Origin: a virus | Strand: one strand, 5' to 3' | DNA length: 55,764 nucleotides | IMG/VR virus record: IMGVR_UViG_3300033402_000018 | Shown here: piece by piece, positions 2,191 through 36,712 of the stretch | How positions within the stretch are numbered: the first letter of the stretch is position 1 | Layout of the letters: each line of letters begins with the position of its first letter | Position numbers and translations under genes: made by a program | The notes under the pieces: model-generated | What the model saw: the letters and a program-made list of their open reading frames with translations, nothing else | Database searches by the model: none | What the model was told of the DNA's origin: nothing

Positions 2191-2819
2191 GTATGGAGCG
2201 GGTCTTAAACGATGCCTTGGAGCTTGAAGGGATTGCCCAAGGGCACCAAGACGACATCCGTGCCTACCTCAAAATCCTGCGCAACCGGGATCAGTCAACC
2301 TACGAGCATTCCATTCGAGTAGGGATACTCGCCAGTAAGATTGCCATCTATGCCGCCAAGCCGGGGGTTAGCGCACGCATGATGCTGTGGGCTGGCTTCC
2401 TGCATGACATCGGCAAGGTGCTGGTGCCGCCCGGAGTTCTTACTAAGAAATCTCACTTTACCGCTGACGATTACGCCGCGATGGAGCCGCACGTCAAGTA
2501 CGGCTGGGACATGCTCACCGAAGTTCACGATTACACCGCACACATCCTCGTCCGGCATCACCAGTATGGCTCCAAGCCCTACCCTAAAGAACTGCCAGCG
2601 CTGCCGGAGCACCTACAGGCTCGCGCTGAAGTGGTGGACAATGCCGCACGCCTATTGGCGCTCGCGGACTACTACGATGCTCTCATGCACCGGAACAACG
2701 ACAAAAACGGTGCGAAGCCGCTATCCGGCAAAGAGAAGCGGGAAATCTACATGCGGGACAACGCCGATCAGAAAGACCTGATCGAGCTTCTTGAGTCCGT
2801 GGGTGTGCTAAAATTCTAG
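2187..2819 (+). CDS. HD-domain phosphohydrolase (HD-GYP-like)
   Basis: H...HD metal-binding motif (HSIRV...FLHDIGK) and downstream HHQYGSKPYP resembling the HHExxDGxGYP region; ATGA overlap with upstream gene. Confidence 0.65.
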   Translation: MSMERVLNDALELEGIAQGHQDDIRAYLKILRNRDQSTYEHSIRVGILASKIAIYAAKPGVSARMMLWAGFLHDIGKVLVPPGVLTKKSHFTADDYAAMEPHVKYGWDMLTEVHDYTAHILVRHHQYGSKPYPKELPALPEHLQARAEVVDNAARLLALADYYDALMHRNNDKNGAKPLSGKEKREIYMRDNADQKDLIELLESVGVLKF

Positions 2820-2826
2820 TAGACTC

Positions 2827-3384
2827 ATGAAAATCAAAGACTTAAAGCTACACGCTTTCTGGAAACGGTTTTTCCGCCGCCTTAGTAGGGGATTGGGCGT
2901 GCCGAAGAAGATTGCAGCGACAGAGGTAAAAGCACCGGGAAAATACGAAGCTGGTAAGCGGTACACCATCTTTCTCGCCGGAGCCATCGACCAAGGTAAA
3001 GCGGTGGACTGGCAGCAGAAAGTCGCCCGCGCTCTGGACGAACTGGACATTCTGATCCTGAATCCGCGCAGAGAGAATTGGGACCCAAGCTGGGATCAAT
3101 CCGCAGACAATCCTGAATTCAGGCAGCAGGTAAATTGGGAACTTGACGCACAGGCGGCCGCTGATATGGTGATTTTCGTGTTCACCAAGGACAGCAAGGC
3201 ACCGATCACGTTCTTGGAATTCGGTCTGTTCGCCCCAACCAAAGACGCCGTGGTCTGCGCTGAAGAAGGCTTCTACCGCAAGGGAAATCTTGACATCGTA
3301 GCTGAGCGCTACCACATTCCAATGTATGACAATTTGGATGAGATGATCGGTGACTTGAAGACGGTGCTTGGGGAGAAAGCATGA
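2827..3384 (+). CDS. nucleoside 2-deoxyribosyltransferase-like protein
   Basis: N-terminal YTIFLAGAIDQG Rossmann-like motif typical of the NDT/RCL family; 185 aa. Confidence 0.45.
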   Translation: MKIKDLKLHAFWKRFFRRLSRGLGVPKKIAATEVKAPGKYEAGKRYTIFLAGAIDQGKAVDWQQKVARALDELDILILNPRRENWDPSWDQSADNPEFRQQVNWELDAQAAADMVIFVFTKDSKAPITFLEFGLFAPTKDAVVCAEEGFYRKGNLDIVAERYHIPMYDNLDEMIGDLKTVLGEKA

Positions 3385-6639: not shown

Positions 6640-7574
6640 ACATTGAATCGAAACTGATACTTGCCAGCAAGAGCGAAGCAACAGGCATCACCCTTTACAC
6701 GTTTGTGCTCACGTACCCACGTGTCATCCTAGCTGAAGTAAACACGCATCGAATGCTCAGCCGCAACACCGCGTCATCTCGCGCTATTCCAGCCAAGAAA
6801 CAGCGGGAACGCGTGCTTACTGATCCGTTCGTGCCTGTCACAATTGGGGCGAATCAGAAAGGGATGCAGGCTGGTGAAGAGCTTGACGGCTGGCGTCGGT
6901 TTGTTGCGATCAACACGTGGAAACTTGCACGCTACCCAATGGTAGCGGCGTCGTGGGTACTCGACAAGGTTGGTGCGCACAAGCAAGTTGTGAACCGCAT
7001 TGTGGAGCCGTGGACGTTCACGCAGCAAGTTGTGACTTGCACCGACCTGAAGAATGTCTTCAAACTGCGCAACCACAAAGATGCAGAGCCACACTTTCAA
7101 ATCATCGCGAAACAGATGCAGATGCAAGCAGAGTGGGCCGAGAAATGGTTTAACACCCTTTCGTGGAACTCGGAGAACGCGCTTGACCGTAGATTAGAAA
7201 TCAACAACCAACTTGGTGTTGGTACTCTTCAGGTGCTAAAGCCGGGGGAGTGGCACATGCCGTTTGTTGATGAGAAGGACATCACAGACACAATCCTGAA
7301 CTCCATGCTGCATGACAGCACTGACGAATCCCTGAAGAAAATCAGCACAGCACGCTGCGCACGTGTCAGCTACTTTCTACCGGAGAGCGGCAAAAGGTCT
7401 GACCCTAAGCGTGACGTAGAGCTTTGCAATAAACTGTCCGGCTCCGGTCATTGGAGTCCGTTCGAGCACGTAGCCACGCCGACAAAAGAAGCGGATTACA
7501 TTGGCAATTTTAAGGGCTGGAAGCAGTATCGTAAAGAGTATCCGCAAGAGTCTGGAGGGGACCGTGGGAATTGA
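6636..7574 (+). CDS. thyX: flavin-dependent thymidylate synthase ThyX-like
   Basis: HRMLSRNTASSRA matches the ThyX RHRxxSxxxxSxR signature; size 312 aa. Confidence 0.6.
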   Translation: MNIESKLILASKSEATGITLYTFVLTYPRVILAEVNTHRMLSRNTASSRAIPAKKQRERVLTDPFVPVTIGANQKGMQAGEELDGWRRFVAINTWKLARYPMVAASWVLDKVGAHKQVVNRIVEPWTFTQQVVTCTDLKNVFKLRNHKDAEPHFQIIAKQMQMQAEWAEKWFNTLSWNSENALDRRLEINNQLGVGTLQVLKPGEWHMPFVDEKDITDTILNSMLHDSTDESLKKISTARCARVSYFLPESGKRSDPKRDVELCNKLSGSGHWSPFEHVATPTKEADYIGNFKGWKQYRKEYPQESGGDRGN

Positions 7575-34194: not shown

Positions 34195-34545
34195 ATGGTA
34201 ACCAGCCGGAGCGCGGAGATCGCACAGACGATTCTGGAGCAGCTTGGCAATGGCAAGTTCAAGGTCATGACTGGTGCGAAGCACTTCATGGCGCTGCCGA
34301 TTGGTCAAGGCACCTTCGGCGGTCTGTCCTTCCGTCTCCCCGGCGCTGGCGGCTTCTGCAAGAACTCCATCAACTATGTGAGCATCGAACTGACGCCGAT
34401 GGACGAGTACGTTATGACGTTCTCGCGTATCCGTGGCGGTGACGTGAAGGTCATTTCCATGCACCGCGACATCCAGTGCGATCAGTTGCGCGAAATCTTT
34501 GAGCAGGAAACTGGTCTGCGCACTTCTCTTGGAGTGGCACGCTAA
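34195..34545 (+). CDS. hypothetical protein
   Basis: GGAGGG RBS then ATG; promoter-like TGGACG-N18-TATACT upstream. Confidence 0.45.
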   Translation: MVTSRSAEIAQTILEQLGNGKFKVMTGAKHFMALPIGQGTFGGLSFRLPGAGGFCKNSINYVSIELTPMDEYVMTFSRIRGGDVKVISMHRDIQCDQLREIFEQETGLRTSLGVAR

Positions 34546-35228
34546 TGGAACTCGAACACGCGGAACAACTCGCTTGGCAGTTAATGCGTGAGTTTGGCTT
34601 GACGGTCAACGGCTGGATGTTCTATTGGGACGATGCTGTCCGGCGTTTCGGCTCTTGCAGCCAGTCTCGCCGCCGCATCACCTTGAGCCGGACGCTCACG
34701 CTGATGAATACTCAGGCGGAAGTGGAAGATACCATCCGTCATGAAATTGCTCACGCGCTGGCACCGCCGAAAGCGGGACATGGACGGCTCTGGAAATTGC
34801 AGTGCATCATCACTGGCGCGAACCCGAAACGCTGTTATGACAGCGCTGACGTTAGCCAGCCGCAAGGCGATTGGTCTGCTACCTGTCCCTGCTGCAAGCG
34901 CACGTACTACAAATTTCGCCAGCCGCGCAAGACAAAGCCTGTCTCTTGCGCTCGTTGCTGTAGGGAACACAACCATGGACGCTTTACGATGGCGTACCAG
35001 TTGGTGTATCGTCATAAGAACGAACTGCCGTTCAATCCTAACACGGTTGCGGCAAGCCTTGGCATCGCGTCCATCACCGTGAACAACGCCCCAGCGAACT
35101 TTACGGTGACGGCAGATGCGCGGAGCGCAGCGAAGGCGGCGTTGAAAGCAGAAATGAAACGCGCCGACGAGATGGAAGAGATGAAGCGGAAGATCGCGGC
35201 ACTTGAAGCGAAGTTAGGGAGCAAGTAA
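34545..35228 (+). CDS. SprT-like zinc metalloprotease
   Basis: RRRITLSRTL...HEIAHAL (HExxH) and C-terminal zinc ribbon CPCCKRTYY...CARCC. Confidence 0.7.
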   Translation: MELEHAEQLAWQLMREFGLTVNGWMFYWDDAVRRFGSCSQSRRRITLSRTLTLMNTQAEVEDTIRHEIAHALAPPKAGHGRLWKLQCIITGANPKRCYDSADVSQPQGDWSATCPCCKRTYYKFRQPRKTKPVSCARCCREHNHGRFTMAYQLVYRHKNELPFNPNTVAASLGIASITVNNAPANFTVTADARSAAKAALKAEMKRADEMEEMKRKIAALEAKLGSK

Positions 35229-35638: not shown

Positions 35639-35728
35639 GGTGAGTTGGGAGAGTGGTTGATTCCGCTGGTTTGCTAAACCAGAGCACCCGAAAGGGTGCC
35701 ACAGGTTCGAATCCTGTACTCACCGCCA
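35639..35728 (+). tRNA. tRNA-Ser (anticodon GCU)
   Basis: Manual fold: acceptor GGTGAGT/ACTCACC, 3-bp D stem, anticodon stem CTGGT/ACCAG with loop TTGCTAA, long variable hairpin, T arm ACAGG-TTCGAAT-CCTGT, discriminator G, encoded CCA. Confidence 0.75.
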
Positions 35729-35729
35729 T

Positions 35730-35815
35730 GGTAGGTTTGGGCATTGGAAGGCCCACCTGTCTCGAAAACAGGCGACCGAAAGGTCGTAGGAGTTCGACTC
35801 TCCTACCTACCGCCA
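35730..35815 (+). tRNA. tRNA-Ser (anticodon CGA)
   Basis: Acceptor GGTAGGT/ACCTACC, anticodon stem CCTGT/ACAGG with loop CTCGAAA, long variable arm, T arm GGAGTTCGACTCTCC, G discriminator, CCA. Confidence 0.7.
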
Positions 35816-36032
35816 AATTTTAAGCTGGGCGGTGTATGGCACGGATACTTCTCGAAAAAGTAAAAACCCGTGACCGCGATGTTCCCCGGCAAAGTGTAAG
35901 TTCGCAGCGGTGTTGGATACAGTTACTTCGGTTGACTCTCTCAGGGAAACCTGAATGAGGAATAGACTTGGTTCGATCCCAAGCGACCAGCCGTAAGGCT
36001 GGTGTCAACTGTACCGTTTGTTCCCTGCGATT

Positions 36033-36122
36033 GGTGAGTTGGGGGAGTGGTTTAACCCACTTCGTTGGAAGCGAAGCGCACCCGAAAGGGTGCCGTGAGT
36101 TCGAATCTCACACTCACCGCCA
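36033..36122 (+). tRNA. tRNA-Ser (anticodon GGA)
   Basis: Acceptor GGTGAGT/ACTCACC, anticodon stem CTTCG/CGAAG with loop TTGGAAG, long variable hairpin CGCACCCGAAAGGGTGC, T arm GTGAG-TTCGAAT-CTCAC, G discriminator, CCA. Confidence 0.75.
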
Positions 36123-36127
36123 AGTTT

Positions 36128-36213
36128 GGAGAGGTCGGCATTGGCACGCCAAGCGGTCTTGAAAACCGTGATACCGCAAGGTATTGGGAGTTCGATTCTC
36201 CCCTTCTCCGCCA
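36128..36213 (+). tRNA. tRNA-Ser (anticodon UGA)
   Basis: Acceptor GGAGAGG/CTTCTCC (one G-U), anticodon stem GCGGT/ACCGT with loop CTTGAAA, long variable hairpin GATACCGCAAGGTAT, T arm GGGAG-TTCGATT-CTCCC, G discriminator, CCA. Confidence 0.7.
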
Positions 36214-36233: not shown

Positions 36234-36311
36234 GCGGTTGTGGCGAAATAGGCAGAGCGGGGGCCTTAAAAGCCCTGTCATTTGCGGGTTCGAGTCCCGC
36301 CAACCGCACCA
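36234..36311 (+). tRNA. tRNA, anticodon UAA (Leu-type anticodon) with atypical short variable region
   Basis: Acceptor GCGGTTG/CAACCGC, anticodon stem GGGGC/GCCCT with loop CTTAAAA, T arm GCGGG-TTCGAGT-CCCGC, A discriminator, CCA; D stem weak and variable region 7 nt, not type II. Confidence 0.45.
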
Positions 36312-36669
36312 AATTTCCGGTTCTTGCTACGATATGTTGGTGTAAGCGCGTGACAATTCGGGCAAAGCAACCGCAGGTTGTCGAGCTTGTTATTTTTGCG
36401 GTCGCCGTCCCGGTGGTCTAGCTCAAGAGGAATTGGAGAGTAACGACGAAAGCGCAGAGATGGCATACTATCTAATACTAAGTTTTTAGCTCTGCCAAGT
36501 ATGGGGGATAGCACTGACTGTGCGGCTGGGCCTTATAAACCCGGAGTAGCTCCTGATTAGAGTAGACGGCGTGGGTTTGATTCCCCGATCCCCTACCATC
36601 CGCAGTATTAAATTTCAGGTCTGGATCAAGCGTCCTAGACGGACCTCGAAAATGTCCCGGTGACGCCAT
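36278..36669 (-). pseudogene. HNH homing endonuclease, apparently fragmented (two reading frames), antisense within the tRNA cluster
   Basis: Minus-strand ORF 36278..36514 encodes LELDHRDGDRKNNKLDNLRLLCPNCHALT (HNH motif); an adjacent upstream ORF 36478..36669 is in a different frame. Confidence 0.5.
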
Positions 36670-36670
36670 C

Positions 36671-36712
36671 GAGCCGAAGGTTCCAAGACTTCGGCTCTTT
36701 GCTTTTTATTGT
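36671..36712 (+). terminator. intrinsic terminator
   Basis: GAGCCGAAG-GTTCCAAGA-CTTCGGCTC hairpin followed by TTTGCTTTTTATT. Confidence 0.65.

Follow-up and report, generated by a model that had tools for sequence, protein, structure and literature searches.

The stretch of viral DNA analysed here (IMG/VR record IMGVR_UViG_3300033402_000018; 55,764 nucleotides (nt); hereafter the window, to which all positions refer unless a contig is named) carries an array of tRNA genes on its plus strand. The array begins with four serine tRNA genes found by ARAGORN and Rfam, tRNA-Ser(GCU) (35639-35728), tRNA-Ser(CGA) (35730-35815), tRNA-Ser(GGA) (36033-36122) and tRNA-Ser(UGA) (36128-36213). These are followed by tRNA(UAA) (36234..36311), a 78-nt gene with a short variable loop that was called by ARAGORN, scored 53.5 bits with the Rfam tRNA model and owes its Leu label to its anticodon, and then by the subject of this study, a tRNA-like sequence with a long variable arm and the anticodon UAU (36503..36598), recognized by a family covariance model, R1 (see below). 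Between tRNA(UAA) and tRNA(UAU), on the minus strand, lies a remnant of an HNH homing endonuclease gene (36317..36460), detected by tblastn and by the Pfam HNH_3 and phrog_10822 profiles. An initial annotation, made from the sequence of the window, had taken this arrangement for the scar of a homing endonuclease insertion into a former tRNA gene. Our analysis reverses that interpretation: of the two elements, the tRNA-like sequence is the healthy one and the HNH gene the ruined one.

The stems of tRNA(UAU) pair, on the plus strand, from 36503 to 36598, rather than from 36504 to 36599 as first given. The acceptor stem, GGGGGAT/ATCCCCT (36503-09/36588-94), has 7 base pairs (bp) including G1.U72, and is followed by A8 (36510) and by a D arm, GCAC-TGACT-GTGC (36511-23), in which position 36517 is A19. 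The anticodon arm, CTGGG-CCTTATAAA-CCCGG (36526-44), has a 9-nt loop, CCTTATAAA (36531-39), with the anticodon TAT at 36534-36 and a C31.A39 opposition; U33, UAU, A37 and A38 are all present. The variable arm, GCTC-CTGATTA-GAGT (36549-63), carries a loop (36553..36559) containing the motif GA(U/C), and the T arm, CG(T)GGG-TTTGATT-CCCCG (36570-87), has a bulged T at 36572 and U56 at 36578. The molecule ends with A73 (36595) and an encoded CCA (36596-98); these, like the acceptor stem, are as the initial annotation described them. The additional hairpin formed by the variable arm would give the RNA five helices, unlike an ordinary tRNA-Ile.

The significance of these features became apparent from relatives. 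A viral contig found via the protein encoded downstream (L001) has a tRNA(UAA) and, 13 nt further on, a sequence that resembles the window copy: its loop is likewise CCTTATAAA, its variable arm is long and its T arm is perfect. When IMG/VR was scanned with the pattern CCTTATAAA, 25-50 nt, GGTTCGANTCC, an in-register 7-bp acceptor stem was found in 95 of 121 sequences among the matches listed; these at least 95 copies represent at least 73 distinct sequences, at least 65 of which clearly form one family. A scan of metagenomes with a 25-mer shared with the related contig L108 added 23 further relatives on 23 further metagenome contigs, so that the family comprises at least 95 copies on viral contigs and 23 in metagenomes. 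It is mainly viral, with about 95 of the 121 viral matches listed being members as opposed to 7 of 80 matches in bacterial genomes, and its carriers range from podophages of 44 kb to a contig of 455 kb. Among cultured phages, the member in Pectobacterium phage PhiM1 is the only tRNA of that genome and is annotated in GenBank as a tRNA-Ile of 98 nt; the member in Vibrio phage vB_ValC_WD615 is likewise annotated as tRNA-Ile, and unannotated members occur in Vibrio phages River4 and Pylo, Klebsiella phage KP13-26, Xanthomonas phage Xoo-sp13 and the E. coli phage ESCO41. In its default mode, ARAGORN called 27 of 70 family loci (as tRNA-Ile tat) and missed 43, including those of the window, L001 and L108, and the general tRNA model of Rfam reported neither the window nor the L001 copy.

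Members of the family share a 7-bp acceptor stem (with G1.U72 in 59 of 95 copies among the matches listed), a 4-bp D stem, a stem of 4-6 bp closing the loop CCUUAUAAA, a variable arm whose stem has 4-7 bp and whose loop reads (C/U)(A/U)GAU(N)(A/G), a linker of 4-7 nt, a 5-bp T stem, A73 and CCA. Among the matches listed, the tail ACCA is found in 70 of 95 copies and A73 in about 90% of the members. In the variable loop, the G and the A are invariant in two alignments (A1 and A2), the next base is U or sometimes C, and a variable base and a purine follow; CAGAUAA, CUGAUUA, UAGAUGA and GGACG are examples (alignments A1, A2 and A5). One form of the loop, CUGAUAA, is exactly the anticodon loop of tRNA-Ile(GAU), and, read the other way, AUN is a codon of the Ile/Met box. 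The window copy has all the markers of the family: the loop xCUUAUAAx with U33 and A37, A73, the encoded CCA and the GA(U/C) variable loop. The 9-nt anticodon loop, in the region that the initial annotation called aberrant, is real, and it is a hallmark of the family and not damage. When the variable-loop motif was used as bait with the anticodon left unconstrained, about 40 of 62 tRNA-shaped matches had UAU, many of them with a canonical 5-bp stem and 7-nt loop, and the anticodon arm of the ESCO41 member is fully canonical (5 bp and CUUAUAC). The variable-loop motif therefore goes with UAU, and the 9-nt loop is the normal loop of a UAU anticodon in a version with a C31.A39 mismatch. The 5-bp stems and 7-nt CUUAUAA/C loops of wider members also led us to reject a role of the 9-nt loop in frameshift or quadruplet decoding or in ochre suppression. 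We likewise rejected the idea that the real anticodon arm is the one with GAU, the UAU arm being an insert: the stem of the GAU arm ranges from 4 to 7 bp, A mostly takes the place of U33, and some of its loops have 5 nt.

The other apparent defects of the window copy are either compensated or shared. Its nearest relatives are those of L400 and L108, and the differences in the stems are all compensatory: U7-A66 for G7-C66 and C49-G65 for U49-A65 relative to L108, and G3-C70 for U3-A70 plus two swapped variable-arm pairs relative to L400. The T stem CG(U)GGG/CCCCG, bulge included, is identical in L400, and the bulge recurs in L384, L391, L074 and L109. The T loop TTTGATT, described as broken, was correctly read but is not damaged; in the window, the U56 that makes it unusual accompanies a D loop TGACT in place of TGGCT, so that the tertiary pair G19:C56 is replaced by A19:U56. 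A separate scan for GGTTTGANTCC yielded two more members with U56, in L133 and L130; the D loop of L133 is TGAT, and that of its relatives L012 and L056 is TGGT. In total, the G19 column has A in all three sequences with U56 (window, L133 and L130) and G in all 37 with C56, an association with an exact probability of 1/9880 (hand count) if the sequences are independent, which they are not fully, though the three belong to different sub-lineages. Such a swap is what selection on the tRNA elbow would predict, and decay would not.

A covariance model (R1) was built from 15 members with the window left out. It aligned the window copy over model positions 1-92 of 92 with no non-standard pair and one inserted U in the T stem, and gave it 78.7 bits (E 2e-19), within the 73-99 bits of the training members; since these are close relatives, L108 among them, the score is partly by construction. 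The generic Rfam models reject the sequence and the family model accepts it; it scores as a normal member of a tRNA family that is itself non-canonical, so that, in spirit, the outcome is the one that the initial annotation had named as refuting its reading. In an alignment of 68 members from viral contigs and cultured phages, some with misaligned 5' ends, 89.8% of the cells are paired, compared with 38-45% in slid controls. In a close clade of 40 sequences the figure is 98.9%, both sides have changed in 24 of 25 pairs, and the covariation measure is 0.874 against at most 0.158 in slid controls, 0.874 being reached in 0 of 500 shuffles. The window copy is therefore an intact, full-length member of a conserved phage tRNA family.

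The position of the HNH remnant was examined by comparison with related contigs. BLAST alignments of L382, L384 and L400 to the window end at 36316 and resume at 36495, and, together with a comparison of the junctions, delimit an insertion of 178 nt (36317..36494). It is flanked by imperfect direct repeats, CCAAATTT on the left (36309..36316, plus strand), made up of the CCA end of tRNA(UAA) and spacer, and CCAAGTAT on the right (36495..36502, plus strand), which matches the CACCAAGTTT junction of the relatives. These join the two tRNA genes directly, with a spacer of AGTTT (5 nt) in L108/L382 and L384, ATTTT in L400 and 13 nt in L001; the insertion is missing from all of them, a presence/absence polymorphism at a fixed site, as would be looked for with a mobile, site-specific homing endonuclease. 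HNH homology begins exactly at the left edge of the insertion, and none was found in the loci of 23 relatives. The insertion thus lies in the spacer between a complete tRNA(UAA) and a complete tRNA(UAU), and within neither, and the remnant is specific to the window genome; the proposed scar in a former tRNA gene does not hold, tRNA(UAU) being of full length and fully paired.

That the minus strand encodes an HNH core was borne out. An open reading frame (ORF) for 78 residues with a GTG start, delimited mechanically (36278..36514, minus strand), includes the core LELDHRDGDRKNNKLDNLRLLCPNCHALT, which matches Pfam HNH_3 (PF13392) with 27.7 bits (cut-off 24.8; E 2e-6) and phrog_10822 with E 8e-19, over profile positions 115-166 of 245 only, and has matches to 190 database proteins, the best with 75-85% identity over the core. 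The database homologs are typically of about 130-138 residues and have a CxxC pair directly before PIPLELDH; in the window the first CxxC zinc pair is replaced by D-S-M-P, and the sequence is not that of a complete protein, which would have an N-terminal domain and both Cys pairs of the zinc-bound beta-beta-alpha-metal fold. The initial annotation had placed the upstream part of the gene in another frame. When six longer homologs (100-136 residues) were aligned to the window by tblastn, they matched only 36317..36460 (E 1e-23 to 1e-26; 77-85% identity); no N-terminal homology was found in any frame, all other matches being at chance level (E >= 0.058). The remnant thus keeps about 47 of about 134-158 residues, the C-terminal beta-beta-alpha-metal core only, and about 85 N-terminal residues are gone. 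Because N-terminal homology is absent from every frame and the first CxxC pair is lost, we regard the HNH piece as a truncated pseudogene, lacking its N-terminal two thirds and without a frameshift. The ORF itself runs antisense into tRNA(UAA) at its 3' end and into tRNA(UAU) at its 5' end, its apparent C-terminal extension being antisense tRNA(UAA); by direct reading, no Shine-Dalgarno-like sequence was seen upstream of its GTG or of an internal ATG, and it is probably not a gene. What stands of the first description is a decayed homing endonuclease gene, antisense inside a tRNA cluster, in an insertion absent from related genomes.

An intact HNH homolog of 158 residues is encoded in the viral contig L009 (4648..5124, minus strand), where it lies between the genes of tRNA-Leu(CAA) and tRNA-Leu(UAG) and is oriented as they are; this HNH family therefore does colonise phage tRNA arrays. 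It is not specific to tRNAs in general, a possibility ruled out by two homologs (P0013 and P0007) with no tRNAs nearby. L009 also has a tRNA(UAU) of the family (6785..6878). Endonuclease genes (HNH or 'putative endonuclease') lie beside or inside other clusters with tRNA(UAU), in L001 (4340..4880, plus strand) and L108 (about 2700-2915, plus strand), and likewise by the tRNA(UAU) genes of L126 (1104..1463) and L124 (1..457) (Vibrio phage WD615 and PhiM1). In the vicinity of these tRNAs, traffic of endonucleases seems to be common. A free-standing endonuclease gene lodged between phage tRNA genes is also known in phage T4, that of SegB (PMC2330249); SegB, however, is a GIY-YIG and not an HNH enzyme, and of the truncated window copy about 47 residues remain, with the first zinc pair gone.

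Together, these observations make it probable that 36503..36598 is the functional last gene of the tRNA operon, encoding a long-arm phage tRNA that reads AUA, and that the HNH sequence is a decayed insertion in the spacer. A plus-strand operon of four Ser tRNAs, tRNA(UAA) and tRNA(UAU) would end at a hairpin terminator in the region of 36671..36710. In the spacer of a few bases between tRNA(UAA) and tRNA(UAU), a free-standing HNH homing endonuclease gene would have landed, antisense, and would later have shed the N-terminal two thirds of its sequence together with the first cysteines for zinc binding, leaving an inert remnant of 178 nt. We infer that the gene is expressed, aminoacylated with Ile and used on the ribosome, as well as this order of events. 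The anticodon loop and A73, as well as the encoded CCA and the position at the end of the operon, all point to an elongator tRNA that reads AUA. In the window, AUA makes up 8% of the Ile codons and UUA 5% of the Leu codons, exactly the rare A-ending codons that match the last two tRNAs of the array (UAU and UAA). In E. coli, A35, U36, A37, A38 and A73 are reportedly determinants for the isoleucyl-tRNA synthetase (IleRS), as Nureki et al. are said to have found in 1994; tRNA(UAU) of the window has all five.

We then asked which amino acid AUA stands for in PhiM1, whose proteins were aligned to those of six other Autographiviridae, identical and AUA subject codons being excluded. In 42 informative columns (176 cells), the residues opposite AUA were Ile at 0.26, Val at 0.22 and Leu at 0.17, and the Ile profile was preferred over that of Leu by 46.6 nats (cells) and 11.0 nats (columns), over Val by 13.0 and 4.7, over Ser by 298 and 74 and over Tyr by 144 and 32; it also beat Met. 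The PhiM1 genome is thus written with AUA as Ile, which disfavours recoding to Leu or Ser and is no proof of charging with Ile. When D arms were compared with those of 805 phage tRNAs called by ARAGORN, the scores were low, and neither Ile nor Leu was enriched.

Long variable arms have been combined with UAU elsewhere. The nearest group on record is allo-tRNA(UAU), which occurs in Acidobacteria and other soil bacteria. UAU is the commonest anticodon of the allo-tRNAs, for which five-stem-junction variants have been described and which generic tRNA finders miss (PMC5389517), and allo-tRNA(UAU) has both the long variable arm and the anticodon in common with the window copy (Mukai et al. 2017, PMC5389517). 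The allo-tRNAs have an 8/4 or 9/3 acceptor/T branch (12 bp), their discriminator is usually G73 or U73, and a tetraloop caps their long D stem (PMC5389517); the window copy and its family, unlike them, have a 7/5 branch, A73, an encoded CCA and a D stem of 4 bp. With its 7-bp acceptor stem, a 5-bp T stem with one bulge and A73, the window copy is thus not an allo-tRNA. Three sequences from acidobacterial genomes (L182, L159 and L168; Acidobacteriota, Bryobacteraceae and Edaphobacter) have the identical CCUUAUAAA loop together with a 9-bp acceptor stem, a 3-bp T stem and G73, and neither CCA nor the GAU variable loop; they would appear to be allo-tRNA(UAU) as described by Mukai et al., and the occurrence of an identical loop in two otherwise different scaffolds suggests a constraint common to UAU anticodon loops. 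Among the nematode-specific V-arm tRNAs, nev-tRNA-Ile(UAU) (Hamashima et al. 2012, PMC3333845) also joins a long-variable-arm body to UAU for a rare codon, as the phage family does; the nev-tRNAs, however, are eukaryotic, derived from tRNA-Leu and charged with Leu (PMC3333845), whereas for the phage family the PhiM1 codon test favours Ile, and we rejected the window copy as a nev-tRNA. Bacterial tRNA-Ile2, with the lysidine-AU anticodon, and the tRNA-Ile(UAU) of Mycoplasma mobile (PMC3575796) share with the family the xU-UAU-AA context, A73 and the presumed task of reading AUA as Ile, and the M. mobile and phage tRNAs are alike in needing no TilS. These ordinary AUA readers have a short variable loop and about 76 nt; the phage family differs in having an additional hairpin, whose stem has 4-7 bp and whose loop is conserved, and often also a 31.39 mismatch and often G1.U72. 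We found no description of a phage long-arm tRNA-Ile(UAU) in the literature searched, although absence there is no proof.

Several observations weigh against a working AUA-reading tRNA at this locus. ARAGORN in default mode reports nothing at 36503..36598, and at a threshold of 70% it returns 'tRNA-?(Ile|Tyr)(tata)' there; Rfam gives no match to RF00005 and 17.1 bits for tRNA-Sec (gathering score 47; E 3.2); the fold z-score is -0.55, the energy being no better than that of shuffles; and the window copy combines three rare features, a bulged T stem, A19:U56 and the C31.A39 mismatch. The codon test was done on another phage, PhiM1, and shows how its genome is written, not the cargo of the tRNA. 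The E. coli IleRS charges the UAU anticodon about 360-fold less well than LAU, with lysidine (PMC3575796), so that charging with Ile by proteobacterial hosts is not self-evident; bacterial allo-tRNA(UAU) showed no activity in E. coli once its anticodon had been changed to an amber-suppressor one (PMC5389517), and the nematode long-arm nev-tRNA(UAU) is charged with Leu (PMC3333845). On the scores of the generic tools alone, a degenerate tRNA would be the reading to adopt, but the relatives alter the picture. If the sequence were the dead relic of a tRNA destroyed by the endonuclease insertion, and the HNH gene frameshifted, the failure of ARAGORN and of the Rfam tRNA model would be accounted for, as would the T loop without C56, the bulge in the T stem, the C.A at the end of the anticodon stem and the HNH remnant abutting the tRNA-like sequence. 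Yet five helices pair over the full length, A73 and CCA are in place, every supposed defect is compensated or common to many relatives, the insertion lies wholly in the spacer between complete tRNAs, and no upstream HNH homology exists in any frame; the whole family would have to be non-functional, which its compensatory covariation opposes. We therefore hold a relic to be highly improbable.

A different role for the folded RNA deserves somewhat more credit, though we still think it unlikely: it might serve in regulation or as a decoy (bait for host anticodon nucleases or other tRNA-targeting defences) instead of in ordinary decoding, or be linked to a toxin-antitoxin system or a mobile element, as proposed for allo-tRNA(UAU). 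The acidobacterial allo-tRNA(UAU) sequences share its CCUUAUAAA loop, six such allo-tRNA(UAU), given an amber-suppressor anticodon, showed no activity when suppression was assayed in E. coli (PMC5389517), the invariant GA(U/C) of the variable loop, which is not usual in the variable arm of a tRNA, suggests a binding partner of its own, and in L001 a family member coexists with a short tRNA(UAU) of the ordinary kind. Against such a role, the anticodon loop keeps every feature that decoding requires (U33, UAU, A37 and, in many members, a length of 7 nt), conservation extends to CCA and A73, and members reside in tRNA operons or are the sole tRNA of small lytic phages such as PhiM1; moreover, L001 is the only one of 70 loci with a short tRNA(UAU), so that the family member usually looks like the sole AUA reader supplied. 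There is very little, in our estimate, to be said for charging by a synthetase blind to the anticodon, either the leucyl-tRNA synthetase via A73 or the seryl-tRNA synthetase (SerRS) via the long arm, with Leu or Ser inserted at AUA through deliberate recoding or ambiguity, as with the nematode nev-tRNAs. The long variable arm and A73 would fit, Leu is the sole amino acid loaded onto nev-tRNA-Ile(UAU) (PMC3333845), Ser is what allo-tRNAs insert (PMC5389517) and an IleRS of the E. coli type reads U34 poorly (PMC3575796); however, the AUA positions of PhiM1 fit an Ile profile and reject Leu, Ser and Tyr, many members have, by our own reading, a D arm with a 4-bp stem of the type of ordinary tRNAs with short variable loops, the SerRS identity element G73 (Mukai et al., PMC5389517) is absent, A73 being found in about 90% of the members listed, and the D-arm comparison shows no Leu signal, with low scores and no Ile enrichment either.

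The surroundings of the array were also examined. Downstream of tRNA(UAU), direct reading revealed a hairpin resembling a terminator, GAGCCGAAG-(9 nt)-CTTCGGCTC with TTTGCTTTTTATT after it (36671..36710, plus strand), not listed by a hairpin scan whose loop limit was 8 nt; the tRNA transcription unit likely ends at this hairpin and T run. The window encodes an NAD-dependent ligase and many proteins with PHROG matches only. For the 1.8-kb region no close phage relative was found in GenBank, the matches being generic ones to tRNA-Ser, and a search for related loci with the upstream protein (34545..35228) yielded nothing. The metagenomic relative L382 (Ga0335085_10000040; 455,708 bp) shows about 69-70% nucleotide identity to the ligase region of the window, and its tRNA(UAU) and immediate upstream flank are identical to those of L108; the window is probably part of the genome of a very large (jumbo or mega) phage present in environmental metagenomes.

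A spacer of 217 nt (35816..36032), between the second and the third Ser tRNA, breaks the otherwise tightly packed array. It has a perfect hairpin resembling a T arm, CTTGG-TTCGATC-CCAAG, near 35966-35982, followed by CGACCAG, which could pair at 6 of 7 positions with CTGGGCG at 35828-35834. ARAGORN found nothing in this spacer in its intron and transfer-messenger RNA (tmRNA) modes, there were no PHROG matches and no homologs among the fetched loci, and Rfam gave one match, at chance level (E 5.8). The spacer looks like a tRNA with its middle replaced by about 130 nt, and would be the candidate tRNA scar of the cluster, if there is one. tRNA-Ser(UGA) (36128..36213) scored higher with the selenocysteine-tRNA model of Rfam (45.9 bits; gathering score 47) than with the general tRNA model; its geometry, read by hand, still looks like 7/5. 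A long arm is normal in bacterial tRNA-Leu. The variable loop of tRNA(UAA) is short in the window, in L108 (3336..3413) and in L384, a short variable hairpin, CGTC-TTCG-GACG, is retained in L400 (about 1989-2073), and the full long arm is present in L001 (6220..6306); thus, tRNA(UAA) seems to have lost its arm within the lineage of the window, beside a tRNA(UAU) that gained one.

To our knowledge, long variable arms in bacteria are supposedly reserved for the tRNAs for Leu, Ser, Tyr and Sec. The family described here is a long-arm tRNA with the Ile anticodon UAU and a variable loop conserved in sequence, kept across many phage lineages, and, with allo-tRNA(UAU) and nev-tRNA(UAU), a third case, a viral one, of a long arm combined with UAU. 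It raises the question of how a tRNA with U34 gets charged and avoids misreading AUG. We entertain, as a speculative idea to which we assign a small chance, that the window copy represents a widespread class of five-armed phage tRNAs not described before, whose variable loop (C/U)(A/U)GAU(A/U)A, near the tRNA-Ile(GAU) anticodon loop CUGAUAA, might be a second identity element through which the host IleRS or a phage factor would accept a U34 tRNA that an IleRS of the E. coli type would otherwise charge about 360-fold less well; if so, the phages would gain AUA decoding independent of the host lysidine enzyme, TilS. The family also bears on how phage genomes are read. Nucleotides that are conserved in tRNAs and look broken can be parts of compensated tertiary pairs, as in the change from G19:C56 to A19:U56, and not signs of decay. 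Finally, because ARAGORN in its default mode missed 43 of 70 copies and the general Rfam model is silent on those of the window and L001, phage tRNA inventories, and the codon-usage arguments built on them, undercount the readers of AUA.

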